A DNA stretch of 54,354 bases from a virus (IMGVR_UViG_2541047692_000008:1-54354); one strand, 5' to 3'; numbered from the stretch's first letter, positions 14,051 through 52,235 are shown. The notes: generated by a model not told the origin, from the letters alone. Made by a program: numbers and translations.

Positions 14051-14066
14051 CGTGATTGCGATCACA
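14051..14066. promoter_or_regulatory. GTGA-N6-TCACA palindrome with GATC (CRP-like site)
   Basis: cgtgattgcgatcaca; followed by atacattttgtat motif; intergenic upstream of gene 14147. Confidence 0.4.
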
Positions 14067-14146
14067 TAAATATACATTTTGTATTGTGATTGCATATCCG
14101 TTTTGTAAGCCGAAATCAAAAGGTTTACGGTGCGGAGGAAAACAAG

Positions 14147-14365
14147 ATGGCCCGCGAATTAATGCTTTATTGTGTTGAGGGTGGCGTAGGTAGTAATGCC
14201 TATGTCGCCGGGAAAGGCTATCCAGCCGATGAAGTGCTTTCTAATATGCACTTCCGGGAAAATGAAAGCCGGGTGTCTGTGTGGAAACGGTGCATTGATG
14301 GTATTGAGGTTGTAAGTATCGAACGGTATTTAGGCACGTTTGATTACGGTGTTATTGAGGCTTAA
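14147..14365 (+). CDS. Hypothetical protein (72 aa)
   Basis: Track ORF 14090..14365; internal ATG preceded by ggaggaaaacaag RBS. Confidence 0.45.
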   Translation: MARELMLYCVEGGVGSNAYVAGKGYPADEVLSNMHFRENESRVSVWKRCIDGIEVVSIERYLGTFDYGVIEA

Positions 14366-14463
14366 TTATGGACGACACATTGTTTTATATGTGCTGTTGC
14401 TGGGGTTTTATTGCCTTATGTCTGTTTATCAGGTGGTTTATTGAATACCATATGAGGTGAGGC

Positions 14464-14658
14464 ATGGAACAGAAAACTGATTATAGAATACCTGATGGCC
14501 TAAAATTAGTTGGCATTGGTTTCGGGTGTAGATTTGTATCTGACGCAAAAGGAGCGATTTATTTAATACGTCTTATTGATGGCGTTCAACATATAAGGAG
14601 ATTAGGAATTTACATCAAAGCATTCAGAAGAGGTTATTTAAAAACTCATGAAATTTAA
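14464..14658 (+). CDS. Hypothetical protein (64 aa)
   Basis: ORF only; weak support. Confidence 0.35.
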   Translation: MEQKTDYRIPDGLKLVGIGFGCRFVSDAKGAIYLIRLIDGVQHIRRLGIYIKAFRRGYLKTHEI

Positions 14659-14851
14659 ACATTACATGGAATGGAAAATTCCAGAAGCAGCAACAAAGGC
14701 AGCGCCAGGAAATGTTTCTGGCGTTTATTTTTATATGGATGGCAAATGGTATTTCGGCAGCAGGCCGGATCGCTACTATCAAGAAATATGCAAGCCTCAC
14801 GTATGGGATATTAAAGAGCGCGTGAAAGGCGGGGTAATTGAGGACGTTTAA
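14648..14851 (+). CDS. Hypothetical protein (67 aa)
   Basis: ORF in operon context. Confidence 0.45.
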   Translation: MKFKHYMEWKIPEAATKAAPGNVSGVYFYMDGKWYFGSRPDRYYQEICKPHVWDIKERVKGGVIEDV

Positions 14852-14852
14852 A

Positions 14853-15080
14853 ATGATGCGTGCAATTATTGACTTCATTATTGGATGGTTATTTTGTTCT
14901 TTTTTCGTATTCTCATGTATAGCTACGGTTTTTATTGGAATTTTATGTGGTGTGTCGTTTGTTACATGGGAGCTACCAGAAATTCCATCACCTGATGATG
15001 CGCTTTATATATTAAGGGTTATTATTGCTGTTAGTGTATTTGTTGGGTTCTTTTTCGCTGATTCTACTGATGATTTATAA
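14853..15080 (+). CDS. Small integral membrane protein (75 aa)
   Basis: Two or three hydrophobic segments (IIGWLFCSFFVFSCIATVFIGILCGVSFV..., VIIAVSVFVGFFF). Confidence 0.45.
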   Translation: MMRAIIDFIIGWLFCSFFVFSCIATVFIGILCGVSFVTWELPEIPSPDDALYILRVIIAVSVFVGFFFADSTDDL

Positions 15081-15081
15081 A

Positions 15082-15315
15082 ATGGCTTTATTTAACCTGT
15101 CAGAGCCGCAATTTAACGCCGTAAAGACTGCCGCCCGCGCCGCGCTTTCGGCCTGCAAGGCGGAGGTAGAAAAGAACGGATACAGCGATAAAGCCACGCG
15201 GCTGATATTAGATAAGCATTATCGCAAGGTCGCCCCGCTAATCAGTATTGAGCGTTTTGTGTGGTTGGTGGGGTATCTGAATAACCGCTGGGGAACGGAA
15301 CAGGATTATTTCTAG
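15082..15315 (+). CDS. Hypothetical protein (77 aa)
   Basis: ATG at 15082 right after previous stop; track ORF 15025..15315 starts earlier. Confidence 0.45.
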   Translation: MALFNLSEPQFNAVKTAARAALSACKAEVEKNGYSDKATRLILDKHYRKVAPLISIERFVWLVGYLNNRWGTEQDYF

Positions 15316-15324
15316 GTGGACGTA

Positions 15325-15864
15325 ATGAAAAATGATTACGGCGGCAGCCATACGCCGAAAGAAATAAAAGACTTATGGCAAACGCCAAAACCCGTTTTTA
15401 GAGGAATGGATCGGGAATTCGAGTTCGTCGCGGATGTGGCGGCAAACAAGGAAAACGCATTAATCCCGCGATATATAACCGAAGAAATGGACACGCTCCA
15501 TTATCCGTGGGGAGCGGTGGCGATGCCTGGTGAGTATGTCTGGATGAATCCGCCATATTCTAATCCGGGACCATTCGTTGATAAGGCGGCGCTTGAACAT
15601 CAACGAAATCACATTGGCTGTGTAATGCTATTGCCCGCTGACATTTCTGTTAGCTGGTTTATGAACGGCGTGGAGACGGCAAACGAATGCCGATTAATCA
15701 CGCGCGGGCGGCTGGCGTTTATCAATGCTGCAACAGGGAAACCAGTAAGCGGGAACAATAAGGGGAGCTTGTTCTTGATCTGGCATCCACGATGCAGACA
15801 TGAATGTATTTTCACGCAGATAACACGTAAAGAGCTATACGCGAGAGGCGCAAATAATGACTAA
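15325..15864 (+). CDS. dam: Phage N6-adenine DNA methyltransferase (Dam-like)
   Basis: Contains MNPPYS (NPPY catalytic motif) and surrounding pattern typical of phage Dam methylases; aggtgga RBS before ATG 15325. Confidence 0.75.
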   Translation: MKNDYGGSHTPKEIKDLWQTPKPVFRGMDREFEFVADVAANKENALIPRYITEEMDTLHYPWGAVAMPGEYVWMNPPYSNPGPFVDKAALEHQRNHIGCVMLLPADISVSWFMNGVETANECRLITRGRLAFINAATGKPVSGNNKGSLFLIWHPRCRHECIFTQITRKELYARGANND

Positions 15865-16265
15865 GGCAGCAGATTTATTAAGACTTGCAGCAGAAACCAT
15901 AGAGCAAAGAGGTAAGCAAAACGGCTACGACAAAAAAGAGGAAAAATCAGCGCCAAAAATAGCCACTATTTACAACGCTAAGAAGGGGGGCAGATTTAAC
16001 CACGCTTGATGTATGGGATCTGCTAATTTGTCTCAAGGAGGCGCGTTTAGAGGCTATTTTGAGCAATAACAGCGATCCGACAGACACACTAATTGATTTA
16101 ATTAGCTATAACGCGCTAAAAGCTGAGCAAATATTAACGGAGCGGGAGGAAGAGCAAAAGAAAAAACAGGGCGTTTTTGATCTCCCTATCGGTGGATTGA
16201 AGAAAACTTTTGCTGACCTTGCCGGACCAGAACCATCTATTGTACCGGGGCAATCCCACCTGTGA
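15857..16265 (+). pseudogene. Possible single gene split at a G6 homopolymer (15985-15990)
   Basis: ORF 15857..16009 (50 aa) and ORF 16059..16265 (TTG-initiated in the track) join into one ~136 aa reading frame if the G6 run is one G shorter. Confidence 0.3.
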
Positions 16266-16349
16266 TGTTTAACGGTGGTGAGATTACTAATTGGCTTGAT
16301 GTGAAGTTTGACAACGAATCGCTATTACGCGCGGCGGGGTATCATAAAA

Positions 16350-16853
16350 ATGGAAAGGGTGACAATTGACAGGTTATTAGCCTGCGTTTATGTCGCCGTT
16401 TTTGTGATCATCAATCTTATTGTTAATCATTGCGGCCCGTGGGTAATTCCGATCACCACGGTAGCCGCCGTGTGTGTCAATATGATGATCCGTGACCTCC
16501 TGTTATATGACGGCGGCCTGAAATGGTCGGCTACAACATGCGCCGCCGCTGGCGCAATCACGGTGCTGATAAATTACGACGCCGGAATGGTGGCGATCGC
16601 GTCATTCGTTGCGGTTGTTTCCGGTGCACTTATTTCTGGCGGCGTTTACCGGGTTTTGCCTGGTGGCTTTGATTCTAAACGTTGGCCTGCAAATATAGCG
16701 TCCGCCATTGGTGATGCGTTAATTTTTCCTACGCTATCGTTTATGGCGTTTATGCCGGAAATATCAGCTATGCAATTCATCTCAAAAATGGCAGCGGTAA
16801 CGGTGATCACCATCATTATGCGCCGCTATTTCACGTTTGAGGGTAGAAAATGA
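16350..16853 (+). CDS. VUT/DUF165-family membrane protein (YhhQ-like, queuosine-precursor transporter family)
   Basis: Multi-pass membrane protein; ...ASAIGDALIFPTLSFMAF... resembles the conserved GN.SDT.AFF region of YhhQ as recalled; track ORF starts TTG at 16308. Confidence 0.55.
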   Translation: MERVTIDRLLACVYVAVFVIINLIVNHCGPWVIPITTVAAVCVNMMIRDLLLYDGGLKWSATTCAAAGAITVLINYDAGMVAIASFVAVVSGALISGGVYRVLPGGFDSKRWPANIASAIGDALIFPTLSFMAFMPEISAMQFISKMAAVTVITIIMRRYFTFEGRK

Positions 16854-17608
16854 GCAGGGCTAAACATTGGTTAAATAATTGGCTTAGAAGTTGGGTGGTG
16901 TGGTCGCTGTACGACGGCAGCGGGTACGCCGTTAAAGATTGGGCGGAAGCTGGATATAAGTGCTATTGCTTCAACTATGACGGCGCAAATCACGGAGATT
17001 ATGAAGGCGTTAAAATCATTCATCCAAATATTGAATACGTTAACGTCTGGATTGATAGCCATTTCCTGGTAATGTTCTCCCCTGAATTGTCTGTTTATCC
17101 AGAGCCTGACATTATCCTGGGCTTTCCTCCATGCGACGATCTCGCTGTGTCAGGCGCTCGCTGGTTCGTTGATAAATACAGGAAAGATCCTTGTTTTCAG
17201 AATAGGGCGGCAAGAAACGCAATGTTGGTTGAATCTCTGGCTAACATGTATAACGTGCCGTGGATGGTGGAGAATCCTGTTGGTGTGCTGTCAACGCTAT
17301 GGCGTAAACCGGATTTTATCTTCAATCCTTGCGCTTACGGTGGCTACCTGCCGGAAGATGACAAGCATCCTGCTTTCCCTGATGTTTACCCACCGCGCGA
17401 CGCGTACACGAAGAAAACTTGCATATGGTGCGGCAACGGATTCAGGCAGCCGCTTTTTAGACCTGTAGATCTTAACTCTGGTGATAACCCTGGGTGGGCG
17501 AAAACCGGAGGCAGGACGAAACGAACAAAGATGATCCGCTCACTAACACCGCGTGGCTTTGCCCGTGCTGTATTCCTGGCTAACCATGACCGCGTTTTAT
17601 CGGACTGA
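16850..17608 (+). CDS. Divergent DNA C5-cytosine methyltransferase-like protein
   Basis: Motif I-like LYDGSGYA, motif IV-like GFPPCDD (PC followed by D instead of Q), motif VI-like VENPVG; translationally coupled to the VUT gene. Confidence 0.5.
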   Translation: MSRAKHWLNNWLRSWVVWSLYDGSGYAVKDWAEAGYKCYCFNYDGANHGDYEGVKIIHPNIEYVNVWIDSHFLVMFSPELSVYPEPDIILGFPPCDDLAVSGARWFVDKYRKDPCFQNRAARNAMLVESLANMYNVPWMVENPVGVLSTLWRKPDFIFNPCAYGGYLPEDDKHPAFPDVYPPRDAYTKKTCIWCGNGFRQPLFRPVDLNSGDNPGWAKTGGRTKRTKMIRSLTPRGFARAVFLANHDRVLSD

Positions 17609-17630
17609 AGTTTACAAAATGGCGTCATTG

Positions 17631-17646
17631 CGTGATATGGATCACA
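17631..17646. promoter_or_regulatory. GTGA-N6-TCACA palindrome with GATC (CRP-like site)
   Basis: cgtgatatggatcaca flanked by inverted tttacaaaatgg (17611-17622) and ccattttgtata (17678-17689). Confidence 0.4.
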
Positions 17647-17767
17647 TAATGGCGCTTTTCGCCTTGTTCTGGTGCATCCATTTTGTATACTTCAAGCAAA
17701 CAAAATGCTCTTTAAAAATCCGGCAGCGCTGAAATGCGTAGAAATCACCTGAAAAGGAGAGAGCATT

Positions 17768-17944
17768 ATGTCTTTTGATGATTACCAATGGCATGACGAC
17801 TATGAACGAGAAAGCGTTATGCGTGCAATGTGCAATGTATGCAGCACGAAGAAAGGAGGCTGTAACGAGTGCAACGAATGCTTAGAACATTGGCTAAGGG
17901 CCGGACACGCCGAAAGGCTGAACGAAACAGAGAATCAAAAATAA
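17768..17944 (+). CDS. ninF: NinF-like small cysteine-rich protein (58 aa)
   Basis: Hand-found; aaggagag RBS; ...ERESVMRAMCNVCSTKKGGCNECNEC... parallels lambda NinF pattern; precedes ninG as in lambda. Confidence 0.5.
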   Translation: MSFDDYQWHDDYERESVMRAMCNVCSTKKGGCNECNECLEHWLRAGHAERLNETENQK

Positions 17945-17958
17945 TCGGGGTGGTTTTT

Positions 17959-18564
17959 ATGCAAAACCCTAAAAAACCCATAAGACGCCGTTGCAAATGC
18001 TGCGGCGTTTTTTTTGAGCCTAAATATCACAATCAAACGTGGTGCAGCGATGAATGTCTGGAAGAACTGAAGTTTGACCAGCTATGCCGCGACCGTGAGA
18101 AGGCTATGAAGGCTATGGAGCGGAAGAAACGCCGTGATAGCCAGAGGGAAGAACGCAACCGGAAGCGTAAACAGTTAAATCCGCGTAGTTATTGGATCAA
18201 ACAAGTTCAAAATGTATTTAACGCCTATATTCGCGAACGTGACGCGCGCTTGCCGTGTATATCTTGCGGGACTTACTACGGTGAGCAATGCGGGTGGGAT
18301 GCAGGTCATTACAGGACGGTAGCCGCCGCCGGACACCTTCGCTTCAACGAGGATAATTGCCATAAGCAATGTAGGCACTGCAACCAGACACTAGACGGCA
18401 ACATCGGAGGGTATCGCCCGGCGCTGATTCGAAAAATTGGCCTCGCCAGGGTGGTAGCTCTGGAGAACAACAACGATACGCATAAATGGACGATTGCAGA
18501 ATGTAAGGAGCTAATAAACATCTATCAGGCGAAATTGGACGCCTTAAGGAGAAAGGCAGCATGA
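17959..18564 (+). CDS. ninG: NinG/Rap recombination protein
   Basis: Track ORF starts GTG at 17869; ATG at 17959; RRRCKCCGVFFEP...PRSYWIKQVQNVFNAYIRERDARLPCISCG...WDAGHYRTVAAAGHLRFNEDNCHKQC... closely parallels lambda NinG as recalled. Confidence 0.85.
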   Translation: MQNPKKPIRRRCKCCGVFFEPKYHNQTWCSDECLEELKFDQLCRDREKAMKAMERKKRRDSQREERNRKRKQLNPRSYWIKQVQNVFNAYIRERDARLPCISCGTYYGEQCGWDAGHYRTVAAAGHLRFNEDNCHKQCRHCNQTLDGNIGGYRPALIRKIGLARVVALENNNDTHKWTIAECKELINIYQAKLDALRRKAA

Positions 18565-18968
18565 ATGAATATTCTTTTAGCCTGCCTTACCCGCCATCGA
18601 ATAATCGCTATTACCGACATTCGCGCGGTTTTCACTATATCAGCAAAGTGGGGAAGGAATACAGGGAACAAGTAAGAGACATCATCGAGCTATTAAATTT
18701 AAATATTAACCTACCTTGCCGACTGGCAATTGCCATTTACGCCGCGCCGCCGGATAACCGGATCAGAGATCTGGATAATATCCCTAAATGCCTTTTTGAC
18801 AGCCTTACTTATGCCGGATTCTGGAGGGATGACGGGCAAATTGACTCAATAAAAATTGTCCGCTGCCGGAAGGTAAAAGGCGGACGCTTGTTTATTAAGA
18901 TCCGCGAACGCGGCGACCTACTACCGGATATTGACGAATACGCGACTAATATGTGGGGTGAGCAATGA
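18561..18968 (+). CDS. rusA: RusA Holliday-junction resolvase
   Basis: 135 aa; LPYPPSNNRYYRHSRG...RDLDNIPKCLFDSLTYAGFWRDDGQI...KGGRLFIKI matches RusA family. Confidence 0.85.
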   Translation: MNEYSFSLPYPPSNNRYYRHSRGFHYISKVGKEYREQVRDIIELLNLNINLPCRLAIAIYAAPPDNRIRDLDNIPKCLFDSLTYAGFWRDDGQIDSIKIVRCRKVKGGRLFIKIRERGDLLPDIDEYATNMWGEQ

Positions 18969-19147
18969 AAAACGAAGTTAAAGATCTGCAAATAGATATT
19001 CAGCGCGACGAGCGTGATTTAGAGACGGTCCGACAAATCCAGGCTTTCCACATGCGCGAATTACTTGCGCTGAAAGAGTTCGAAAGAAAGCTGGTGCAAT
19101 CCATTTCTGATCGTAAACGGCTGGCGGCGCGTTATGAGGGCAAATAA
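18965..19147 (+). CDS. Hypothetical coiled-coil protein (60 aa)
   Basis: ORF coupled between rusA and Q-like gene. Confidence 0.45.
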   Translation: MKNEVKDLQIDIQRDERDLETVRQIQAFHMRELLALKEFERKLVQSISDRKRLAARYEGK

Positions 19148-19875
19148 TGAATTTAGAATCCATTCTAAAATTCCACTTTCCTAAATCACCGCGATTATCT
19201 GACGAAAGCCGGGGCACGTCCCCGGACGCTCTTAATACGACGGATGCGCTAACCGCTGCGGGTATGGCGCAATCGCGCGTAGAGCTTGGATATGGCGCTT
19301 TTTTAGGGAAGATGGAACTATCACAAGCCGAAAAACATAGGGCCGTAGTTTTGCTTACAGAGCGTTTAAGGGCTATGGCGAAAGATTACGAATACGTGAT
19401 GGAGTTAAACGAGGATCAGCGCAATGGACTTATTATTCTTGTTGCCGTTTTCGCGTTTCGGGATTATTGCCAGAGTGCGGCGACCGAAAAAGTTTGCCCT
19501 AAGTGCGGCGGCCACGGGCATTTACCAAATCCATATTGCAAATACACATCGACAATTTGTTCGCGGTGCAACGGCAAAGGCTACGTTAAAAACCATTGCC
19601 AACGTTGCAAGGGGCGCGGAGAAGTACCGGATAAAGCAGCCAGTGAAGCGGCGGAAATGCCAGTATTCAAAACGTGCCAGCATTGCGGCGGGCGCGGGTA
19701 CTCGCGTTTCCCGGTAGATCTCGTCCGGCAGGCCGTTAACCAGCTTGTTTTCCCGGTAAGCAGATCAACATGGTGGAAGAAATACCGGGTTTTCTATGAA
19801 GACGCCATAGCGGAGCTATTCAAAGAAGAGGCCCGCGCGGAAAGCGAAATTAAACGAGTGACACGGGGTGAATAA
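19147..19875 (+). CDS. Q-like late antitermination protein candidate with four CxxCxGxG zinc motifs
   Basis: 242 aa; N-terminus MNLESILKFHFPKSPRLSDE resembles Qin/82-type Q as recalled; position after ninG-rusA; CPKCGGHG, CSRCNGKG, CQRCKGRG, CQHCGGRG repeats (DnaJ-like zinc finger pattern). Confidence 0.55.
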   Translation: MNLESILKFHFPKSPRLSDESRGTSPDALNTTDALTAAGMAQSRVELGYGAFLGKMELSQAEKHRAVVLLTERLRAMAKDYEYVMELNEDQRNGLIILVAVFAFRDYCQSAATEKVCPKCGGHGHLPNPYCKYTSTICSRCNGKGYVKNHCQRCKGRGEVPDKAASEAAEMPVFKTCQHCGGRGYSRFPVDLVRQAVNQLVFPVSRSTWWKKYRVFYEDAIAELFKEEARAESEIKRVTRGE

Positions 19876-24100: not shown

Positions 24101-24116
24101 TGTGATCTGTATCACA
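24101..24116. promoter_or_regulatory. TGTGA-N6-TCACA palindrome with GATC (CRP consensus-like)
   Basis: tgtgatctgtatcaca; followed by inverted tacgaaatggca / tgccattttgtta pair (24119-24160). Confidence 0.45.
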
Positions 24117-24197
24117 AGGTTTACGAAATGGCATTGTTTCGACAGTGCCATTTTGTTATAAAGAAGCTGAAGAGAGAACGATGCGGAGGGTAGAAAA

Positions 24198-25809: not shown

Positions 25810-25988
25810 TTGAAGATGGTATATACGCCGTAACACTAATCGACAAGATGTTTTATCGCATAGAGGGTGGTGATATTCGCGTTTGCGTTAGCGATGGTGA
25901 GTGGGTAGCGCCAATCATCAAGACGACGCGAGAAACAATTAAAATCTGGCTTGATAATGGCGATTTGGTGAAAGTTAGTGATTTGTAG
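25806..25988 (+). CDS. Hypothetical protein (60 aa)
   Basis: Last ORF of the block before the terminator and holin. Confidence 0.45.
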   Translation: MIEDGIYAVTLIDKMFYRIEGGDIRVCVSDGEWVAPIIKTTRETIKIWLDNGDLVKVSDL

Positions 25989-26051
25989 CCATAATCGCGC
26001 ATAAAAAACAAATAGATTAAAATATTTCCTAACAATGCGAAATTGTAATTA

Positions 26052-26075
26052 CCCGGCCACGAGCCGGGTTTTTGC
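26052..26075 (+). terminator. Rho-independent terminator upstream of holin (candidate tR')
   Basis: cccggc-cacga-gccggg followed by tttttgctttgtt; about 20 nt before the holin RBS. Confidence 0.6.
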
Positions 26076-26093
26076 TTTGTTGGAGGAAAATCT

Positions 26094-38404: not shown

Positions 38405-39103
38405 ATGATCCATGTTCGTACAGGACAATTTGCTGCCGTGGTGAACGGTAAGCGCTATGAGTTTAATCCTTGCTTTGCTGCGATGGCTAAAATCGGCAAC
38501 GATAGTGAGCTTGTCGAATATTTCGCACTTATCCACGGCGGCAAATATCCATCACGATTGCCAGCAGATCCAGACCTACGCAATCGCATTCTGGCGCGGT
38601 GTTATGGTGAAATAGTTCAGACATCAATGCACATCCTGAAATGTTGCTCAGACGACGAAATAGGCCCGTTATTGGGCGAATGCTGGTTTACTCCTTCGGG
38701 TAAGTTAAAGTTAAAGCCCGGATTAATGCCGATCGAGGATATCATCACGCTTGCGCAGCACTGCATGTACCACGGTCTTATTGGTGATGGCCCGGAAGAA
38801 GAGTCCGGGGAAATCCCGGAAGGGGAATATAAGCCGACTTTTAACGTCCTTGAATTCGTCTATTCTGCCGTTGCTCACCTGGGCTTGTCAGAATCGGAAG
38901 CATGGAATATGACAATGACCGGATATAGGGCCGCTGTACGCGCTAAAACGCCGCCAGACGAAAGAAACGAGAAAAGCAAGCCAAACATTCACATAAATAA
39001 ACGTGCTTATGACGAGCAAATGGAGGCCGCTAAAAAGGCACTAGAAAGAATGAAAAATCGTGAGCAAGAAAAGCCCGGTAGATCCGGGCGTTTTGCTAAT
39101 TGA
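38405..39103 (+). CDS. Tail assembly chaperone candidate (232 aa)
   Basis: Track ORF 38396..39103 (GTG); ATG 38405 after aaggtga RBS; position between tail tube and tape measure; no frameshift site identified. Confidence 0.4.
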   Translation: MIHVRTGQFAAVVNGKRYEFNPCFAAMAKIGNDSELVEYFALIHGGKYPSRLPADPDLRNRILARCYGEIVQTSMHILKCCSDDEIGPLLGECWFTPSGKLKLKPGLMPIEDIITLAQHCMYHGLIGDGPEEESGEIPEGEYKPTFNVLEFVYSAVAHLGLSESEAWNMTMTGYRAAVRAKTPPDERNEKSKPNIHINKRAYDEQMEAAKKALERMKNREQEKPGRSGRFAN

Positions 39104-39470
39104 AATCTTTAATTGCTGTACCTGGTGAACTGTGTGTGATTGTATTGTATACAGACTTTGCCTTACTGCGATCTTTCCATTCTTTTAGGATGCAGTTATC
39201 AAACTTTGCGATAACCCTTGAAGGGGATAATTCTTCAACATCCATGTAAGTAAATCCTATCGTGCTGGTTACTGAATACCATACGTGATAACTATAATTA
39301 CCGTCATGCTCGATTCTTTGTGGTTCCCCCATTATTTTATTCACTTGCTCACAAGTCATTCCAACTTGCAAATTTTTATCAGCTAACTTAACGAAATCAG
39401 TTGATCTTGCGCACCCTGTAAGAGCTAAAGCCATAACACCAATGAGAACCGCTTTGATTATTTTTTTCAT
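39096..39470 (-). CDS. Lipoprotein (moron, opposite strand to late operon)
   Basis: 124 aa; signal peptide MKKIIKAVLIGVMALALTGC with lipobox LTGC. Confidence 0.65.
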   Translation of the reverse strand: MKKIIKAVLIGVMALALTGCARSTDFVKLADKNLQVGMTCEQVNKIMGEPQRIEHDGNYSYHVWYSVTSTIGFTYMDVEELSPSRVIAKFDNCILKEWKDRSKAKSVYNTITHSSPGTAIKDFN

Positions 39471-39480
39471 GATTTACCCC

Positions 39481-40140
39481 TTAATTCCAGTTGCAAGCGT
39501 TTTTCACTTTGTCGATGTGGTTATAAAGACCATCAATGTTAAACACTGCTTTCTCAATGTCGCCAGCTTCCGGCACTACTTCAATGATGAATTGTTTTTC
39601 GTTAACCAGTTTTTTAATCATTGGGATGGCTTTTTTGCCGTCCCATAATCCAAGAGCTTTATAATTAGTTGACCGCCACCACTCAGTAGCTACAGCTTTG
39701 TGAACGCCGATCCGGTAGTTAATATAAGTAGTGTCCCCGGCGTCAGTTACATGGTGTGACCATGCTACGAACATTTTTGTTTTATTACCCTGGCAAGCGA
39801 TTGTTAATACCGGTTTATTCTTATCCTGTGCCTTCAGTGTCGGGAAAGCATCAAGACTTCCGCTGAATTGTTCTGCTTTCACAAAAAGGAATACGTTTTT
39901 TGCGTCCTGCATATCATCTTTTCTTTCAACTACAAGCCACTGTTTACCAGCATTTTCTTTTTCTAACTGTGCATCGTATGCGGCTTGTTTTGCTTGTTGT
40001 TCTGCAAGCCATTTAGCATTTTTCTCTGCTAATGCTTGTTGCTCTTGATTGGTCACTATAGGCGCTTTTTCATTATCCTCATTGCAACCAACCAGACCCA
40101 ATACCGCCGCAATCATTGCCACTTTTGCTAACCGTTTCAT
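39481..40140 (-). CDS. Lipoprotein (moron, opposite strand to late operon)
   Basis: 219 aa; signal peptide MKRLAKVAMIAAVLGLVGC with lipobox LVGC; Q/A/K-rich linker. Confidence 0.65.
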   Translation of the reverse strand: MKRLAKVAMIAAVLGLVGCNEDNEKAPIVTNQEQQALAEKNAKWLAEQQAKQAAYDAQLEKENAGKQWLVVERKDDMQDAKNVFLFVKAEQFSGSLDAFPTLKAQDKNKPVLTIACQGNKTKMFVAWSHHVTDAGDTTYINYRIGVHKAVATEWWRSTNYKALGLWDGKKAIPMIKKLVNEKQFIIEVVPEAGDIEKAVFNIDGLYNHIDKVKNACNWN

Positions 40141-40187
40141 AACCCACCACGCTAACTTGATTTACTGACCATTCCCTTTAGCTTCCT

Positions 40188-40227
40188 TATACAAAATGGA
40201 GTCGTTGAAGTAAAGCCATTTTGTATA
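40188..40227. promoter_or_regulatory. Perfect 12-bp inverted repeat of dispersed motif (TATACAAAATGG / CCATTTTGTATA)
   Basis: tatacaaaatgg-N16-ccattttgtata immediately upstream of tape measure gene, followed by cagatcaca. Confidence 0.5.
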
Positions 40228-40267
40228 AAATAGATACACAGATCACATTTTTGCATGAGGTTAAATC

Positions 40268-42696: not shown

Positions 42697-42951
42697 TCAC
42701 TTATGAGTGCCTTTCACGCCACATAACTTGTTATAGGCATGGTGCTCAACAATTAACCAAACCTTCAAATCTTCGCTAAACAGCCTCCAATCAAGATTGA
42801 TATCCATTTTGTATCCGTAACCGTCGCGTAACTTTTTGGGGTAAACTTCTTTTCTCAGAAAGGCTTTAAGTAATTCCTTACCTTTCTTGATGATCCGGTC
42901 CTGTGCGTTTTTCTGTGCTTTCAGATTTCTGTCAATCGCTACCAGTTTCAT
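42697..42951 (-). CDS. Hypothetical protein (84 aa), possible RelE/YafQ-like toxin
   Basis: C-terminus ...DWRLFSEDLKVWLIVEHHAYNKLCGVKGTHK loosely resembles YafQ/RelE C-terminal pattern; second gene of a two-gene minus-strand cassette. Confidence 0.4.
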   Translation of the reverse strand: MKLVAIDRNLKAQKNAQDRIIKKGKELLKAFLRKEVYPKKLRDGYGYKMDINLDWRLFSEDLKVWLIVEHHAYNKLCGVKGTHK

Positions 42952-42968
42952 AACTCACCCCATCATCC

Positions 42969-43124
42969 TTAGTTAAGTGCCTTCAGGAAGAAGTCCCGGT
43001 ATTCATCTTCTTTCGCATTCATCATGAATTGACCGTATTTGAATGCGTCGTCGAAACCCTTAACGATTGCTATTTCCACTTGTTCGAATGCGTTATTTAG
43101 CATTACTACTACATAGCGTTTCAT
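42969..43124 (-). CDS. Small protein (51 aa), upstream partner of 42697..42951
   Basis: Hand-found; strong RBS aaggagg; MKRYVVVMLNNAFEQVEIAIVKGFDDAFKYGQFMMNAKEDEYRDFFLKALN. Confidence 0.4.
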   Translation of the reverse strand: MKRYVVVMLNNAFEQVEIAIVKGFDDAFKYGQFMMNAKEDEYRDFFLKALN

Positions 43125-43998: not shown

Positions 43999-44247
43999 CT
44001 ATAAGTTATCACGCAGATAATTAACGCCCTTATCAGTGACGAATGAATGGTTAACCTGGTTTTCATCCGTCATGATGATGAATAACTTTTCATGTAGGTA
44101 TTTCGCTTTCGGGTACAGCGTTAAACAGACCTGGTACAGTATCCCGCGCTCAATCAGCAAATCAATAAATTCGTGTTCATGATAACCGATGAGGCGGGCG
44201 GCCTGTTTCAACGTGTACACATAATCACCGTGATTGCGCCGCCCCAT
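43999..44247 (-). CDS. Putative HTH DNA-binding protein (82 aa)
   Basis: YTLKQAARLIGYHEHEFIDLLIERG helix-turn-helix-like segment; last gene of three-gene minus-strand cassette. Confidence 0.5.
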   Translation of the reverse strand: MGRRNHGDYVYTLKQAARLIGYHEHEFIDLLIERGILYQVCLTLYPKAKYLHEKLFIIMTDENQVNHSFVTDKGVNYLRDNL

Positions 44248-44256
44248 GTTGCCGCC

Positions 44257-44604
44257 TTATTTATCGAATGCTGAAAGGTTATCGATACAGAAATCTTTCG
44301 CCGCTTTTTCGTATTCGCGTTTTGCTTCTGGATCGTCAGCCGGGAAACCTTTTGCGTGTATTTCACCAGGGCAAGACTGGTCCATAGAATCTGCATAATA
44401 AGCAGTGAAGCTACCATTAATATCTTTCGGGTTCATATCTTCCACCTCATCAACTATCTGTACCGGATTAGCAGCATATTTCACTGGATGGCCTAAACTA
44501 CATTCAAGAATCCTGCCTTCTTCCAGGGCTACTTCTTCGCTATCAAATAATCCGAAACACTCCTTGCTACCACTTAACCACACATCAAGACTGTATTTTT
44601 TCAT
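44257..44604 (-). CDS. Hypothetical acidic protein (115 aa)
   Basis: Track ORF 44257..44706; ATG 44604 (MKKYSLDVW...) overlaps upstream gene end by 20 nt. Confidence 0.45.
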   Translation of the reverse strand: MKKYSLDVWLSGSKECFGLFDSEEVALEEGRILECSLGHPVKYAANPVQIVDEVEDMNPKDINGSFTAYYADSMDQSCPGEIHAKGFPADDPEAKREYEKAAKDFCIDNLSAFDK

Positions 44605-44773
44605 TTTTGTTAGCCTCATATTTGACAGGTTCGATCTGGTATCCCAAAAGGCGGTCATCCTCAGCAAGTAAAAGCGCGTCAACCAATGCTTCACCCTCGT
44701 CGTCATACAGGGCGATAACCTTTTCCCTACCGTCTGTCATGAATACCGTCAACTTCCATAGCTTTTCAGTCAT
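44585..44773 (-). CDS. Hypothetical small acidic protein (62 aa)
   Basis: Track ORF 44585..44893; ATG 44773 preceded by ggaggtg RBS; MTEKLWKLTVFMTDGREKVIALYDDEGEALVDALLLAEDDRLLGYQIEP... Confidence 0.5.
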   Translation of the reverse strand: MTEKLWKLTVFMTDGREKVIALYDDEGEALVDALLLAEDDRLLGYQIEPVKYEANKNEKIQS

Positions 44774-44868
44774 AACGCACCTCCGCGCCATTTTGTTAAC
44801 TATGCTTCCGTTTGAGTAAAATATACATATTGTAAAAACCGCGATCAATCCATTTTGGTATGATTTAG

Positions 44869-44884
44869 CGTGACGCAGATCACA
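44869..44884. promoter_or_regulatory. GTGA-N6-TCACA palindrome with GATC
   Basis: cgtgacgcagatcaca in the intergenic region between the minus-strand cassette and gene L. Confidence 0.35.
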
Positions 44885-46814: not shown

Positions 46815-46827
46815 CAGGAGAAAAACC

Positions 46828-49800
46828 ATGAGTAGCGGCGGCGGCAAAGCCAAAACACCAACATTATTGAACGATAACCTGTATCACAAACAGTTTTATC
46901 GTGTTTTAGATATTCTCAGCGAAGGGCCGATATACGGTCCGGTAAACCAGAAAGCGCCATTGAATGACGTGATGCTTAATGACACTCCTGTTACTGACGC
47001 AAACGGGAATACATCAATTCCGGGGATTAGTATAGCCTGGCGCAACGGCACGGCTGACCAATCGCCGATTAATGGTTTTAACGCCATTGAGTCAACCGTT
47101 ATTGTCAACGCAAAGGTAACTCACGACACACCAATAATCAGGACTGTTTCAGATCCAAACGTTACCCGCGTCAGGTTGAATCTTGGTGTTGATGCTCTCG
47201 TTCAGTCAGATGAAAAGGGCAATCAATATAATACATCCGTCATGTTGATGGTTGATGTTAAACCGTCATCATCTTCTACGTGGTCGCTGATTAAAGACAT
47301 ACACATTGGCCCTGGTAAACAAAGCGGTGAATACCTGGAAGCTCACATCATTAAAGCGCCGGATGAAAAACCGTTTGATATTCGCGTTCGTCGCATAACA
47401 CCAGACAGCAACGGCGATCTATTGCGGAATGATACGCGGTGGAGTAGTTACAGCGAAATAATAGATGATAATCTGTCTTATCCTCATACCGCTGTAGCTG
47501 GCGCCGTAATTGACCATGATCAGTATACTGATACGCCTACCCGCACCTATCACCTTCGCGGCCTGATTGTTGATGTGCCTGACAACTACAACCCTGAAAC
47601 GCGCACATATTCAGGTTTATGGCTTGGTGGATTTAAAAAGGCGTATACCAATAACCCTGCATGGCTTTTCCGGTATCTGGTTAAAAACGAGCGCTTTGGA
47701 CTTGCTCGACATGCTGGTTACATTGATGTTGATGATGGCGCTTTGTACGTGCTTTCTCAATACTGCGATCAGTTGGTTGATGATGGCTATGGTGGCCTTG
47801 AACCTCGCATGACGCTTAACGCTTACATTACGGAGCAAATGAGCGCCCGCGACCTACTGGATAACATCGCAGGTATGTTCCGTGGTATCGCGTTATGGGA
47901 CGGACAACGTCTTACCGTGATGATTGATGCGCCACAAGATCCAATCGCCACCATCACAAATGCAAACGTCGTTGATGGCGCGTTTACTCGTTCAAGTATC
48001 GCACGCGCAGAATGCTACAACGCCGTGATCGTATCCTGGACTGACCCTGAAAACGGCTGGGAGCAATCAAAAGAATATGTCGCAGATGATAAACTAATCG
48101 CCCGTGATGGTTATAACGAAACCACGTTGGAGGCGTTCGGTTGCACTTCACGCGGGCAAGCGCACCGCGCTGGTAAATGGCTGATCGAAACAGCGAAACG
48201 CGAGCCGTCAAAATTCACATTTAAAATGGCCCGTGACGCCATTCACTTTACGCCGGGGGATATAATCGAGATCCTCGATAATAATCGCGCAGGCGCTCGT
48301 TTAGGCGGTCGCATCGTGGCGAACAATGGCAGAGCGATCACGGTCGACAAGGTTGATTCTGAATATATCGCGGCTGGCGACACCATCAGCTTACTTGATA
48401 GCGATGGTAAATTTAAAAAACACCAGATCATCGGAGTTAACGGGAACATTATCACCCTTGCAGCCGCCCCGGCGTGGATTCGTAACGGCACTGTTTTTGC
48501 TGTATCAACCAACGCAGCAAAACCCGTTTTATGTCGAATCACCAGTGTAGCAGAAACAGAAAATAACAGCGTATACACCATCGAGGCCGCACAGCATGAT
48601 CCACATAAGCAGGCCGTAGTCGATAATGGCGCAATCTTCGAGATCAATAACGACACGCTTAATCACTTCCGCGTGCCGAACATTGAAAATCTGAAGGTGT
48701 TAAACGTTGGATCTGAAACGGTTCAATGTCGCGCAACATGGGAAACACAGACGACAACGCGTCGCCTGACCTTTGAGATTCGCGTGTATAACGCCGAAGG
48801 CGCTGTAGTTAAAAGCTACGAAACCACGAATTACAGTTATGATTTTTATGGCATTGATGCTGGCAACTACTCATTAGGCATTCGTGGCAGAAATGACACG
48901 GGCATGAAGGGTGCGGAAAGCATTGTCGATCTGGTTATTGGCGCACCAGCGGCCCCAGTTGGCGTTAATTGGGTTCCCGGTGTATTCCAGGCTACAGTTT
49001 ACCCGATCAGCAGAACAACGCTCACCACTGATACCAGTTACGAGTTTTATTACTCAGGTGAAACGCAGATCACTGATCCGGCATCAATAACCACTAAAGC
49101 ACAATATACCGGGCGTGGTCATCAGTGGACGTTTGGCGGCATGAATACAGGTCACACATATTACGTTTATGTGCGCGCGCGTAACGCTTTTGGTGTGTCT
49201 GACTTTGTGGAAGCGTCAGGTAAGCCAACAGAAAACTTTGATGAAATTACCGATTACGTCACCAAAGACGTAATGAATTCCAAACAATTTAAAGAAATGG
49301 TTGGTGACATTAAAGATCTAGGCGACCGCACTGATCTTATCGAAAGCGCTACGAATGACCTTAAAACTGCTACTGACAACCTCAAAACTGCAACTGATAA
49401 TCTGACCAACATAACTGACGATTTAAGGACTGAAACTGACAACCTAACCATAGAAACAGGATCAATAAAAGCTGATACTGATACGCTCAAAAAAGAAACG
49501 GAAGATCTTTATAAAAAAGTTAAGGAAAACGCCGATGATATTGGACAGCATGAGTCGAGAATCGACTCGCTGGAGGTGTCTAGCGAAAAAGTTGGCAGCG
49601 AACTGGCGCAAGCAAAAGCAAGTCTGCAAAACGCCTCACTTGCTCTTATTAATAACTCGCTTGCACAGACTAACACTCGCGTAACTCTTACCGCTCAGTA
49701 CAAGAAAGGCAGGACAGAGACGAAAGCGGAAATTGACCGCATTGACAACGTTATCGCTGAAGAGAAAAAAGCGACAGCGGAATCACTGGAAACCATCACG

Positions 49801-51798
49801 GCAGAAATGAATGTGATGGACACAAACCTTAAAGGTCAGATCTCTAATGTGCAACGCGCAGTAGCTGACGAGGCCAGCGCCCGCGCTGAAGCTATTAACG
49901 GTGTAAATGCCTCAATAAGCAATCTTGACAAGAAAACTGACGCCAGCGTAAACCGTCTTGATCAGGCAATTGCAGACGAAACAAGTGCGCGTACTCAGGC
50001 TATCAGCGACGTGAACGCAAGTATCTCAACACTTGACAAGAAAACTGACGCCAGCGTTAAGCGCCTCGATAATGCAATATCAGATGAAACGCAGGCAAGA
50101 AGCGACGCAATAACAGTGGTTAAAGCTGATTTAACAACGCTTGAAAATAACACAAATGCCAGTGTTAGCCGTCTTGATCAAGCTATCGCTGATGAATCAA
50201 GCGCACGTGCTCAGGCGATATCAGGTATCAGCGCGACGCTTGGCGGCGTTAAAAGTGAGGTTGATAAAAACAGCGACGAGATAGATCAGGCGAAAGCAAG
50301 TCTGCAAAACGCATCTCTGGCGCTTATTAATAACTCAATGGCGCAAAGCAAGATGAGCACTGTTATTGAGGCGAAATACAGGAAAGGACAAACAAAAACA
50401 AAAGCGGAAATAGCAAGGGTAGACACAGCAATCGCAGATGAGGCGAGCGCACGCGCAGAAGCTATTAGCAACGTTAACGCCAGCGTCAGTAGTCTTGAAA
50501 GCAAAACCGACGCGAGCGTTTCCCGTCTTGATAAAGCAATCGCAGATGAGGCGAGCGCACGCGCAGAAGCTATTAGCGGGGTTAATGCGTCAATTTCCAC
50601 GCTCGATAGCAAGGTGACAAGCAACGTAACCAGGATGGATAAAGCGATCGCAGATGAGAAGAATGCACGCACTGACGCAATCAGCAGCCTTAACTCATCG
50701 CTTACCAGTACGATTAATTCGAAAGTATCCGAAGTGTCAACTGCACTTTCTACGCATGAAACATCAAGCGCGGAAAAATTTGGCCAGATCTCGGCATCTT
50801 TCGACGATGTAAACTCAAGCATCACGGAATGGTCACAGGCTATGGCAACGGCAGACGAGGCATTGTCAACCAGAATCGACCAGTTGAAAGTAACTATTAA
50901 CGGAAACACAACGGCGATAGAAACGACATCAAAAGCACTGACTGACTTCAAAGGTAACGTTGATGCGTCATATTCAATTAAGATTGCCACTGATAAAAAC
51001 GGTATGAAATACGCTACAGGAATGTCGCTCGGCCTTACTGGTAGCGGGACTAACGTTCAATCGCAGTGTATTTTCCTCGTTGACCGTTTCGTGCTTATGA
51101 CTGCGGCAGGTGGCTCCTATCAGACCCCGTTCTATGTTACTAACGGTGCTTGCTACATCCGTGATGCGTGGATCAGAGACGCATCAATCACTACCGCGAA
51201 GATTGCGCAGCAAATTCAGTCAACCAACTATAAAGCTGGTTCGGCTGGCTGGATGCTAAATAAAAACGGCAATGCGGAGTTCAACAACGTCACTGTACGC
51301 GGTACGGTGTACGCAACATCTGGTAAATTCACTGGTGAGATTCAGGCCACAAGCGGGAAGTTTAAAGGTACAGTAGAGGCAAAGTCATTTGTCGGTGACG
51401 TTGCTAACATGGGGGTTGGTCCAGATCGAGTGCTTGGGCATAACGGAAGTTATAGCGCAACCATCACATATAAAGACAGCACGGATAATGCATTGACGAA
51501 ATCAGTTATGCTTATGGCGACTATTTCATTAATGTCTGGTGAATATAGATCCACTTATAACGTAACGTTTAGTTGCGGAGATAAAAACAAAACAATTTCA
51601 TATTACGTGCCTTATGGTGGATGCACATTAACAGTGCAATGCGCTTTTTCTGGTTTAAAAGCATCAGATATTATCGGGAAAATATATTGTCCTCAAACAT
51701 CATCATCTGAAGGATACGCATATTGTACCGCGTTGTATTCTCCAACAATGATAGTAGCAAGAGGCACCGGATCATTTAGAACATCAACGACAGCATAA
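46828..51798 (+). CDS. Tail tip host-specificity protein J (lambda gpJ-like) with inserted coiled-coil repeat region
   Basis: 1656 aa; N-terminal 900 aa closely parallel lambda J as recalled (ISEGPIYGPV, WSSYSEIIDD, YHLRGLIVDVPDNYNPETRTYSG, FGCTSRGQAHRAG); residues about 930-1300 are 40-aa tandem repeats. Confidence 0.9.
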   Translation: MSSGGGKAKTPTLLNDNLYHKQFYRVLDILSEGPIYGPVNQKAPLNDVMLNDTPVTDANGNTSIPGISIAWRNGTADQSPINGFNAIESTVIVNAKVTHDTPIIRTVSDPNVTRVRLNLGVDALVQSDEKGNQYNTSVMLMVDVKPSSSSTWSLIKDIHIGPGKQSGEYLEAHIIKAPDEKPFDIRVRRITPDSNGDLLRNDTRWSSYSEIIDDNLSYPHTAVAGAVIDHDQYTDTPTRTYHLRGLIVDVPDNYNPETRTYSGLWLGGFKKAYTNNPAWLFRYLVKNERFGLARHAGYIDVDDGALYVLSQYCDQLVDDGYGGLEPRMTLNAYITEQMSARDLLDNIAGMFRGIALWDGQRLTVMIDAPQDPIATITNANVVDGAFTRSSIARAECYNAVIVSWTDPENGWEQSKEYVADDKLIARDGYNETTLEAFGCTSRGQAHRAGKWLIETAKREPSKFTFKMARDAIHFTPGDIIEILDNNRAGARLGGRIVANNGRAITVDKVDSEYIAAGDTISLLDSDGKFKKHQIIGVNGNIITLAAAPAWIRNGTVFAVSTNAAKPVLCRITSVAETENNSVYTIEAAQHDPHKQAVVDNGAIFEINNDTLNHFRVPNIENLKVLNVGSETVQCRATWETQTTTRRLTFEIRVYNAEGAVVKSYETTNYSYDFYGIDAGNYSLGIRGRNDTGMKGAESIVDLVIGAPAAPVGVNWVPGVFQATVYPISRTTLTTDTSYEFYYSGETQITDPASITTKAQYTGRGHQWTFGGMNTGHTYYVYVRARNAFGVSDFVEASGKPTENFDEITDYVTKDVMNSKQFKEMVGDIKDLGDRTDLIESATNDLKTATDNLKTATDNLTNITDDLRTETDNLTIETGSIKADTDTLKKETEDLYKKVKENADDIGQHESRIDSLEVSSEKVGSELAQAKASLQNASLALINNSLAQTNTRVTLTAQYKKGRTETKAEIDRIDNVIAEEKKATAESLETITAEMNVMDTNLKGQISNVQRAVADEASARAEAINGVNASISNLDKKTDASVNRLDQAIADETSARTQAISDVNASISTLDKKTDASVKRLDNAISDETQARSDAITVVKADLTTLENNTNASVSRLDQAIADESSARAQAISGISATLGGVKSEVDKNSDEIDQAKASLQNASLALINNSMAQSKMSTVIEAKYRKGQTKTKAEIARVDTAIADEASARAEAISNVNASVSSLESKTDASVSRLDKAIADEASARAEAISGVNASISTLDSKVTSNVTRMDKAIADEKNARTDAISSLNSSLTSTINSKVSEVSTALSTHETSSAEKFGQISASFDDVNSSITEWSQAMATADEALSTRIDQLKVTINGNTTAIETTSKALTDFKGNVDASYSIKIATDKNGMKYATGMSLGLTGSGTNVQSQCIFLVDRFVLMTAAGGSYQTPFYVTNGACYIRDAWIRDASITTAKIAQQIQSTNYKAGSAGWMLNKNGNAEFNNVTVRGTVYATSGKFTGEIQATSGKFKGTVEAKSFVGDVANMGVGPDRVLGHNGSYSATITYKDSTDNALTKSVMLMATISLMSGEYRSTYNVTFSCGDKNKTISYYVPYGGCTLTVQCAFSGLKASDIIGKIYCPQTSSSEGYAYCTALYSPTMIVARGTGSFRTSTTA
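49600..50730. repeat. Intragenic tandem and duplicated repeats within J
   Basis: gcgaaagcaagtctgcaaaacgc at 49606 and 50290 (681 bp apart); about 120-bp periodic units encoding TDASV.RLD.AIADE.SAR..AI..VNAS. Confidence 0.75.
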
Positions 51799-51800
51799 AA

Positions 51801-51826
51801 AACGGGGCATAAGCCCCGTTTTTTTT
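51801..51826. terminator. Terminator after J
   Basis: aacggggc-ataa-gccccgtt followed by T8. Confidence 0.65.
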
Positions 51827-51837
51827 ATGCATTGTTT

Positions 51838-52083
51838 TTATTTTTTACACCCATCATTTACACCAGAAAAATGGATAGGTAAATTACATTCACTGTCAAT
51901 AATTTTACCTTGTAGTTGTTTTTCTTTCCATGAGTCAGTATTGAAATAACTCGAACGTTGGTTATCAAGGCCAGTATCACCATATTGAGCAGTGCCAGCA
52001 TCACTCTTATCTGTCGAATTTACAGAAGCAAAAGCACCAAAAGACAGAGCTGATAAGATGCAAGCAACAATTAGTTTTTTCAT
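51838..52083 (-). CDS. Small secreted protein with signal peptide (81 aa)
   Basis: Track ORF 51838..52140; ATG 52083 after aaggtga RBS; MKKLIVACILSALSFGAFASVNS signal peptide; two Cys in mature part. Confidence 0.55.
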   Translation of the reverse strand: MKKLIVACILSALSFGAFASVNSTDKSDAGTAQYGDTGLDNQRSSYFNTDSWKEKQLQGKIIDSECNLPIHFSGVNDGCKK

Positions 52084-52219
52084 TGTATTCACCTTACTGT
52101 TTGTTTTACTGTCATTTGTTGTTCGTGATGATCCACCCATCCGATGAGCAAATCACCGCAGAAGCTATCATTTCGTATGTTGATATAGATCAAAAAATAC
52201 ATTATGTATAAACCAAAAG

Positions 52220-52235
52220 TGTAACACAGATCACA
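52220..52235. promoter_or_regulatory. TGTAA-N6-TCACA palindrome with GATC upstream of tail fibre gene
   Basis: tgtaacacagatcaca followed by caaaatgg motif. Confidence 0.35.

Follow-up and report, generated by a model that had tools for sequence, protein, structure and literature searches.

Palindromes resembling CRP sites at fixed spacing from predicted promoters in a temperate coliphage of the mEpimmI group

What reads the palindromes of the form TGTGA-N6-TCACA that recur between the genes of a temperate coliphage, in company with a short dispersed motif, TACAAAATGG? The question is raised by IMGVR_UViG_2541047692_000008:1-54354, a stretch of 54,354 bp (the window, meaning throughout the whole stretch that was analysed) that is nearly the whole genome of a phage of the mEpimmI group, described as a new family in 2025 and reported to equal the lambdoid phages in prevalence in human faeces (PMC11893012). 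Three regulators of these phages have been described, namely a lambda-CI-like repressor, an N-like antiterminator (Gp17) with three nut sites and a Q protein, while the promoters and operators were left undefined and the palindromes and the dispersed motif unmentioned (PMC11893012). No account of these sites, or of CRP control in mEpimmI phages, was found in the literature. The original prediction for this locus had proposed that the palindromes place internal promoters under control of cyclic AMP (cAMP)-CRP or of a methylation-sensitive system. The reading favoured here, to which we give a probability of roughly 55%, is that they are bound by a symmetric dimer of CRP-like specificity, most probably the host's cAMP-CRP itself, acting as a class I activator.

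The five palindromes that had been proposed are all found where they were placed, between open reading frames and each with a GATC: site A at 14051-14066 (CGTGATTGCGATCACA), site B at 17631-17646 (CGTGATATGGATCACA), site C at 24101-24116 (TGTGATCTGTATCACA, with a perfect 10/10 core), site E at 44869-44884 (CGTGACGCAGATCACA), 19 nt upstream of the start of tail gene L (44903), and site F at 52220-52235 (TGTAACACAGATCACA), 46 nt upstream of the tail-fibre gene (52281). Such a set is far from what base composition would provide, as the pattern GTRA-N4-GATCACA occurs five times in the window against an expectation of 0.05 (none of 100 shuffles reaches five), and TGTGA-N6-TCACA with up to two mismatches gives 35 matches against 22.0 +/- 4.6. 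Two more members of the set lie beyond the list first drawn up: a palindrome at 9181-9196 (TGTGACTTGCATCAAA, 9/10 core, no GATC), which surfaced from a matrix scan combined with geometry, and a half-site at 40232-40247 (site D, AGATACACAGATCACA, core 7/10). The statement that each palindrome has a copy of the dispersed motif within about 20 bp is borne out, with at most one mismatch, for four of the original five; near 44869 the copies are variants only (CCATTTTGGTA, 10 nt upstream, and an overlapping CACAAAATGA).

Comparison with related phages gives these sites a characteristic footprint. Around two marker genes, about 160 loci were retrieved from IMG/VR, of which about 40 per side are true relatives; the counts given here and below refer to unique relative sequences at each site, with about 35 related genomes overall. 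The palindromes recur at the same positions in nearly all true relatives, so that the conservation by which the original prediction was to be judged is indeed there. Specifically, GTGA and TCACA are near-invariant and the central 4-6 nt are free to vary, and since half-sites are kept while the spacer varies, this is the pattern expected of a dimeric protein reading two 5-bp half-sites over six unread bases. By their sequence, the conserved half-sites are those of CRP. The palindrome at 9181 keeps a 9/10 core in all 21 relatives and is 100% conserved as TGTGACTTG..TCAAA, and the core at site A scores 8-10/10 in 32 of 32. Site B occurs as 14 distinct 16-mers in 30 relatives, in which GTGAT and TCACA are retained without exception and the central 4-5 nt vary. 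At site C all relatives share the GTGATCT half, and about one in two has a degenerate second half; at site D only GATCACA is invariant. Site E has a 9/10 core in 33 of 34 relatives, and site F a core of 8-9/10 in 26 (9/10 in the window).

The match to CRP was scored with a position weight matrix (PWM) built from 16 classical E. coli sites and no phage data; of these sites lac alone was verified, so that all scores are approximate. With this matrix 52220, 17631, 9181, 44869, 24101 and 14051 are the six best matches in the window, which is the outcome that the proposal of CRP sites called for; their scores run from 13.3 to 17.0 bits, compared with 9.3-18.5 for the training sites, with site F and the 9181 palindrome tied at the top (17.0 each). 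The half-site at 40232 ranks eleventh, with 11.7. At a threshold of 13 or more the window holds 8 matches and lambda none; in unrelated enterobacterial phage DNA (1.28 Mb) the rate is 0.55-1.19 per 54 kb. Core scores of 9-10/10 are found at 9181, 14051, 17631, 24101 and 44869, and the strong side of every site reads WWWTGTGATC, the full consensus CRP half-site. In the relatives the core position that varies most is the T that opens TGTGA (at sites A and B it can be any of the four bases), and it is this position that is least constrained in CRP sites. Against the published consensus AAATGTGATCTAGATCACATTT, as quoted in bioRxiv 10.1101/2021.11.11.468322, site C agrees at 17 of 22 positions, the best in the window.

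The partner of the palindromes, the dispersed motif, appears to be a promoter element. With at most one mismatch, TACAAAATGG occurs 25 times against 6.2 +/- 2.4 expected, more strongly over-represented than any other 10-mer in the window. The copies are oriented as CCATTTTGTA, those facing a gene have TTGnnn 8-9 nt upstream, and the TA of the motif opens a TAnnnT-like hexamer (TAAACT, TATACT or TATAAA), giving an overall layout of TTGnnn-N16/17-TAnnnT. In this arrangement CCATTTTGTA would supply the spacer and -10 region of a family-specific sigma-70-type promoter. Reversed copies (TACAAAATGG) abut the -35 at P_R, which is canonical and strong (TTGACT-17-TATATT, 9993-10021), as well as at 24122 and at leftward promoters with copies at 40216 and 44850. 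They fall at about -46 to -37, which we take, by the UP consensus, to be the proximal UP-element subsite. Because reversed copies abut the opposite -35, a single copy would serve both promoters of the divergent regions at 40.2 and 44.8 kb, as the -10 region of one and the upstream element of the other. A resemblance to mycobacteriophage stoperators and other dispersed phage repeats should be mentioned for the motif alone: it is short and asymmetric, has about 15-25 copies, mostly intergenic and oriented with transcription, and is common to the immunity-region promoters and to distant sites. Unlike stoperators, however, it stands in fixed register with -35-like and -10-like hexamers and so looks intrinsic to the promoter. 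The conserved CCATTTTG may be a promoter feature alone, or it may in addition be an operator, perhaps that of the repressor. As a site for sigma-32, sigma-54, sigma-S, IHF, Fis or a DnaA box the motif was rejected, none of which fits when the consensus sequences are compared by eye.

Five of the palindromes stand in a constant relation to promoters predicted in this way. The 9181-9196 site lies upstream of the predicted P_L, on the minus strand (9162-9135), which consists of TTGATC (9162 to 9157), 16 nt and TAAACT (9140 to 9135), with CCATTTTGTA at 9148 to 9139. This is the only plausible candidate for an early leftward promoter; it lies 70 nt upstream of nutL (9062 to 9020), and its -35 (TTGAYC), its -10 and a CCATTYTG block are kept in relatives, the rest of the spacer being variable. 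Past site A, at 17 nt, the predicted P_A (14084-14111, plus strand) reads TTGTGA, 16 nt including CCGTTTTG, and TAAGCC, a -10 that is weak in the window itself and TAAACT in many relatives; it is upstream of 14147-14365 and the ipe-dam block. Likewise 17 nt past site B, the predicted P_B (17664-17691, plus strand; motif at 17678) reads TTGTTC, 16 nt including CCATTTTG, and TATACT, its TTGTT forming a conserved island amid a variable stretch, and is followed, in less than 20 nt, by nutR2 (17706-17746) and then by ninF, ninG, rusA and Q. The predicted P_C (24134-24162, plus strand), once more 17 nt past its site, has TTGTTT, 17 nt and TATAAA with a TGn (extended -10), and the gap between site C and P_C is occupied by a reversed motif, TACGAAATGG (24122-24131). 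On the minus strand, the predicted promoter of a VasI-like moron, D-left (40214-40186), starts 17 nt after site D and reads TTTACT (40214 to 40209), 17 nt and TATAAG (40191 to 40186), with a moderately conserved -35 (TTnAnT).

It is the constancy of these distances, visible directly in the sequence as are the sites, their conservation pattern and their match to CRP, that ties palindromes and promoters together. From site to motif the offset is 47 nt at 14051/14098, 17631/17678 and 24101/24148, and 48 nt on the minus strand at 40247/40199 and 9196/9148; at random positions, a core scoring 9/10 or better occurs at such an offset with a frequency of 2e-4. Between the end of the 16-mer and the -35 lie exactly 17 nt at sites A, B, C and D-left, and 18 nt at P_L. 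This distance is unchanged in the relatives (A 32/32, B 30/30, C 14/14, D 30/30 and P_L 20/21), although the 17-nt gap sequences (TAAATATACATTTTGTA, TAATGGCGCTTTTCGCC, AGGTTTACGAAATGGCA and ATTTTATACAAAATGGC) are unrelated between sites; this argues that the spacing is kept by selection and not inherited from duplication.

The same layout is known from lac P1, in which TGTGAGTTAGCTCACT is followed by 17 nt (CATTAGGCACCCCAGGC) and TTTACA. Its sequence was found 100% identical upstream of lacZ in K-12 derivatives, and the assignment of its elements is well established. Both have a TGTGA-N6-TCACA 16-mer, a weak -35, imperfect hexamers and a site centre about 60 bp upstream of the start. In contrast to lac P1, the phage has five to seven sites, in a phage genome, with a conserved CCATTTTG in the spacer and often a reversed TACAAAATGG abutting the -35; its spacers measure 16-17 nt as against 18 in lac, and its site centres, counted from starts that are themselves predicted, lie at -59.5 to -60.5 as against -61.5.

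Taken as a mechanism, CRP would bind at the site, the C-terminal domain of the RNA polymerase alpha subunit would dock on the 17 nt that follow, and the -35 would come next. Five sites (9181, 14051, 17631, 24101 and 40232 leftward) would thus be centred about 60 bp upstream of weak sigma-70-type starts, for which the family-specific CCATTTTG-TAnnnT would supply spacer and -10. High cAMP would then mean more transcription of the early left operon, the ipe-dam block and the block from nutR2 through ninFG and rusA to Q, and also of the small-gene block before the lysis cassette and of at least one moron. The promoters, their start sites, and CRP binding and activation are what we infer from the arrangement. 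Consistent with a promoter that depends on a host factor, a lysogen of mEp021 shows an Ipe-dependent haemolytic phenotype (PMC11893012); accordingly some promoter upstream of ipe, a gene that itself lies past site A and P_A, must be active while the prophage is repressed.

On these grounds host cAMP-CRP is the most economical candidate. Of the control by cAMP-CRP or methylation that had been suggested for internal promoters, the CRP part is thus favoured by matrix score, conserved core and spacing, and the motif paired with the sites is promoter-like; the Dam part is not established. The palindrome set is real and functionally meaningful, and on this reading it adds one more case to a well-known mechanism and does not amount to a new one. 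If CRP does activate P_L and the promoter before nutR2 and Q, the sugar status of a gut bacterium would directly set the readiness of its prophage to replicate, to lyse the cell and to express its morons; among the morons are those for a VasI-like protein, a ParE-like toxin and an antirepressor, along with ipe and its haemolytic phenotype. It also yields a first, predicted promoter map for mEpimmI, with P_L, P_R, three internal promoters, divergent moron promoters and P_R', and a concrete prediction of seven sites and five start points, the latter near 9128 (minus strand), 14118, 17698, 24169 and 40179 (minus strand).

Several observations weigh against this reading. The predicted site centres are 1-2 bp off the canonical -61.5, the predicted hexamers are weak (P_L has 8/12 matches) and the -10 elements of A (in the window), C and D-left have no T at -7. 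Site D has one half-site only, sites E and F fit no activator geometry, and site E lies 19-20 nt from a leftward -35 (-62.5 to -63.5) at a distance that varies among relatives. Site B can be explained alone as the tip of a terminator hairpin, the GATC is kept more than CRP's weak preference there predicts, and of the sites behind the matrix lac alone was verified. Finally, the repressor Rep is 90-100% identical in all relatives that have the sites, and since all of these carry the same repressor, covariation cannot separate a host from a phage factor.

This last point also speaks for a phage-encoded factor, in which case the palindromes would be operators or activator sites of a phage dimer (Rep, 9222-9869, or a small uncharacterised protein) that matches or mimics the specificity of CRP, an alternative that we consider somewhat doubtful. 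The composite architecture, GTGA-N6-TCACA-N17-TTG-N11-CCRTTYTG, is found in IMG/VR in this phage group only, in 67 stretches that can all be aligned to the window; this restriction to one lineage fits a host factor as well as a phage factor. The palindromes at D, E and F overlap the predicted starts of rightward promoters, as a repressor's would, most early proteins have no known function, and phage late activators with upstream dyads do exist, for example Ogr of P2. On the other hand, no site above 6/10 is found at P_R (9930-10070) or P_R', where a CI-type repressor or a late activator should act, and five sites near -60 are in no position to repress. The tandem sites over the P_R and P_L cores expected of CI operators are missing, the lone P_L site lying about 60 bp upstream of the predicted start. 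Among the 69 proteins of the window Pfam reveals no CRP/FNR-family, Ogr/Delta or sigma-like domain, and PHROGs gives no regulator among the families shown. The protein at the Cro position is not conserved, its identity ranging from 29 to 99% in relatives with the sites. Ipe, a protein connected with the expression of haemolysin E, was considered as the binder and rejected: it has no sequence match in the PDB, and its AlphaFold model (predicted local distance difference test, pLDDT, 83), a three-helix bundle, finds no structural match below E = 1. More generally, a phage protein would need a chance match to the ten core positions of CRP, to the N6 spacing and to the flanks.

A close phage parallel is with the late promoters of P2, 186 and P4 (activated by Ogr, B and Delta), which likewise serve several phage operons and have an upstream dyad near -55 and sigma-70 promoters with a poor -35; their activation goes through the alpha subunit of RNA polymerase. 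Their dyad, however, is TGT-N12-ACA, whereas here it is TGTGA-N6-TCACA (TGT-N10-ACA), no Ogr/Delta-type protein was found among the 69, and the promoters here include the early leftward one and leave out that of the late operon, a separate Q-dependent P_R'. A test of host against phage factor on distant relatives was abandoned, as the candidates (loci L038-L079 and L123-L159) are unrelated phages without motif or sites that share only a 252-aa protein or tail protein L; they served as controls only. One genome per species was also scanned for the 216-aa protein encoded beside site A, and no match was found.

The favoured reading treats the GATC as part of the CRP half-site; alternatively, the GATC could be the essential element, making the sites Dam-methylation switches, either alone or by tuning the binding of a protein at the palindrome. 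The phage does encode the Dam-like methylase that had been pointed out: its gene (15316-15864, plus strand) matches Pfam PF05869 at E = 2.4e-52, and its mEp021 homologue carries the annotation DNA N-6-adenine methyltransferase. GATC is present in six of the seven sites and is retained in 148 of 166 unique relative sequences over these six (A 27/32, B 24/30, C 14/14, D 29/30, E 32/34, F 22/26), and at most sites, C and D among them, it is kept better than the spacer bases beside it. GATCs in E. coli CRP sites escape methylation when CRP is bound. CRP has been called methylation-sensitive (bioRxiv 10.1101/2021.11.11.468322). Yet genome-wide GATC is neither enriched nor avoided (267 against 260 expected), the P_L site has it in 0 of 21 relatives, and in 6 of 30 variants of site B it is lost (TGTCACA, GGTCACA, CATCACA or CGTCACA in place of GATCACA) while TGTGA and TCACA are kept. 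These losses accompany a perfect left core (Fisher p = 0.016, uncorrected for phylogeny), as expected if total affinity, and not methylation, is selected. Because TGTGATC is the optimal CRP half-site, the GATC needs no separate explanation, but methylation may have a modulating role. Moreover, there is one GATC per site, and binding of the SeqA type needs at least two. The known switches pap/Lrp, agn43 and Mu mom/OxyR, and CRP sites with a protected GATC, are similar in having GATC inside the site of a factor and a Dam in the genome; they differ in having at least two GATCs and a heritable on/off state, compared with one per site here, which some relatives dispense with.

Dam control is accordingly unproven, and that GATC is essential we regard as decidedly unlikely. 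Unlikely too, when taken as a whole, is a combined scheme in which this gut-prevalent family would wire its early left, Q-feeding and moron promoters to cAMP-CRP by means of near-consensus class I sites together with its own type of promoter element, and methylation of the GATC in the strong half-site by host or phage Dam would shift CRP binding between freshly injected or replicating DNA and the prophage, as a nutritional and epigenetic input to the choice between lysis and lysogeny. Some predicted -35s also contain GATC, namely TTGATC at P_L (9157-9162) and in the leftward promoter at 44843-44848, and TTGTGATC at P_A in most relatives (about 14084-14091), through which Dam methylation could touch the core promoters.

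Palindromes may also act in RNA, as terminators, stabilisers of 5′ ends or processing sites, and for site B there is reason to think so. It caps a 15-bp hairpin (17621-17655, -23 kcal/mol, z = -3.1), after which comes the U-rich UUUUCGCCUUGUU, and this hairpin is the predicted terminator t4 of mEp021 (PMC11893012). Around sites C and D, inverted pairs of the motif (at 24.1 and 40.2 kb) fold strongly, at -19.6 and -13.4 kcal/mol (z about -5.5). But the features of an intrinsic terminator, a stable hairpin and a U tract, come together at site B alone. Sites A, E and F fold no better than shuffles (z = 0.08, -1.8 and -0.5), and at C and D many relatives have lost one half-site, which leaves no conserved hairpin. 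The stems are conserved in sequence without compensatory change, the lower stem of B has uncompensated changes, and a stem of 4-5 bp is marginal in itself. Since A, E and F fold like shuffles and C and D lose one arm, RNA structure is not the common denominator of the sites, and as a general explanation, now very improbable, it is largely refuted. Site B may well be both at once, the terminator of the block upstream and a DNA site for a protein. The two inverted pairs, at 24119-24160 and 40187-40228, have the same 16-nt gap (TACAAAATGG-N16-CCATTTTGTA), and the one at 24.1 kb, with its A tract, GC stem and U tract, resembles a bidirectional terminator.

Sites E and F and the rightward face of site D stand apart from the activator geometry of the others. 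A search for class I or class II geometry at E and F on both strands found no convincing partner promoter. Both lie at the right-hand edge of leftward morons; site E overlaps the predicted start of CCATTTTGG-TATGAT (44850-44864), and site F that of a rightward ACATTATG-TATAAA as well as a reversed motif, CACAAAATGG (52232-52241). The rightward -10 elements beside both sites are not well conserved in relatives. The leftward promoter near E (TTGATC-17-TATATT, 44848 to 44820) was also found by an independent promoter scan. Site D combines two relations: its distance to the leftward moron promoter is precisely that of class I, and at the same time it overlaps the predicted start of a rightward CCATTTTGTA with TAAAAT (40216-40231, plus strand), which is 100% conserved in 30 relatives and lies upstream of the tape-measure gene (40268). 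It may be conjectured that D, E and F, if occupied, hinder rightward initiation and perhaps help leftward moron expression. Upstream of site F, by 27 nt, TTGATATAGATCAA at 52180-52193 is a perfect FNR consensus, TTGAT-N4-ATCAA, of which the half-sites TTGA and ATCAA are kept in most relatives; it scores 12.2 with the CRP matrix.

Around the repressor gene some further elements can be read. A candidate repressor promoter at 9187-9224 (TTGCAT-17-TAGGGT), whose -35 is overlapped by the 9181-9196 site, would start at the A of the ATG at 9222, so that its mRNA would be leaderless like that of lambda cI transcribed from P_RM. Back-to-back with P_R lies a leftward copy of the motif, CCATTTTGTATACT (9991 to 9978), that would yield a transcript of about 90 nt, complementary to the 3′ end of the repressor mRNA and ending at a bidirectional terminator at 9875-9892. 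The nut sites at 9020-9062 (minus strand), 10058-10100 and 17706-17746 (both plus strand) correspond to nutL, nutR1 and nutR2 of mEp021 and are built of a GCTCTTTAAAAA-type boxA and a boxB hairpin, nutR2 coming about 10 nt after the predicted P_B start.

A probable Q-dependent P_R' lies within 25985-26080, with a short leader and a strong terminator at 26051-26069 (ACCCGGCCACGAGCCGGGT and a T run) directly before the holin gene; the arrangement is like P_R'-tR' of lambda, is conserved in mEp021 and has no CRP-like site. Site C was also considered as the Q-dependent late promoter and ruled out, since P_R' and its terminator, upstream of holin at about 25990-26075, are without a palindrome. An intragenic composite on the minus strand of the portal gene (31176-31240), in which an 8/10 AGTGATGATCTTCTCA precedes a motif-like ACAGTTTGTATAAA by 47 nt, has ACCACC as its -35 and is probably due to chance.

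The genes named above were placed by comparison with the mEp021 annotation and by Pfam. In a tested 12 kb the window is 86-90% identical to MagusPhagus, mEp010, mEp013, mEp021, mEp044, mEp515 and mEp554, and in a tested 1 kb it is 99.7% identical to prophages of E. coli M1/5, GF66.2 and MS 21-1; a related prophage is present in 35 of 5,426 complete E. coli genomes. The integrase gene (1-1215) is followed by the early leftward operon, which includes replication genes (about 1400-8994, minus strand), and by the CI-like repressor. The rightward early region holds the N-like gene (10370-10660, plus strand), erf, ssb, ipe (15085-15315), dam, ninG, rusA and Q. The last of these is placed at 19147-19875 (plus strand) by Pfam PF03589 and the mEp021 annotation, which rules out 16850-17608 as an earlier candidate for Q. 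The protein of 16850-17608 (252 aa) has no Pfam match, is annotated in relatives as a cytosine methyltransferase and is common, at 50-60% identity, to many unrelated phages of about 45-50 kb (loci L038-L079), in which its gene is followed by a conserved TAGCACTTTTTGTTAAAA, then a hairpin, then CATAAT.

About 30 small genes come after Q, the lysis genes start at 26094, and the head and tail genes extend to 54 kb, broken up by leftward morons, all on the minus strand: a block at 39096-40140 that includes the VasI-like gene (39481-40140, PF11319), a ParE-like toxin gene (42697-43124, PF24732), a fragment of a KilAC-type antirepressor gene (43999-44706, PF03374) and a moron at 51838-52140. Some of the leftward morons encode proteins of no assigned function. 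Moron content differs between relatives, and the junction sequences with motif and palindrome are kept.

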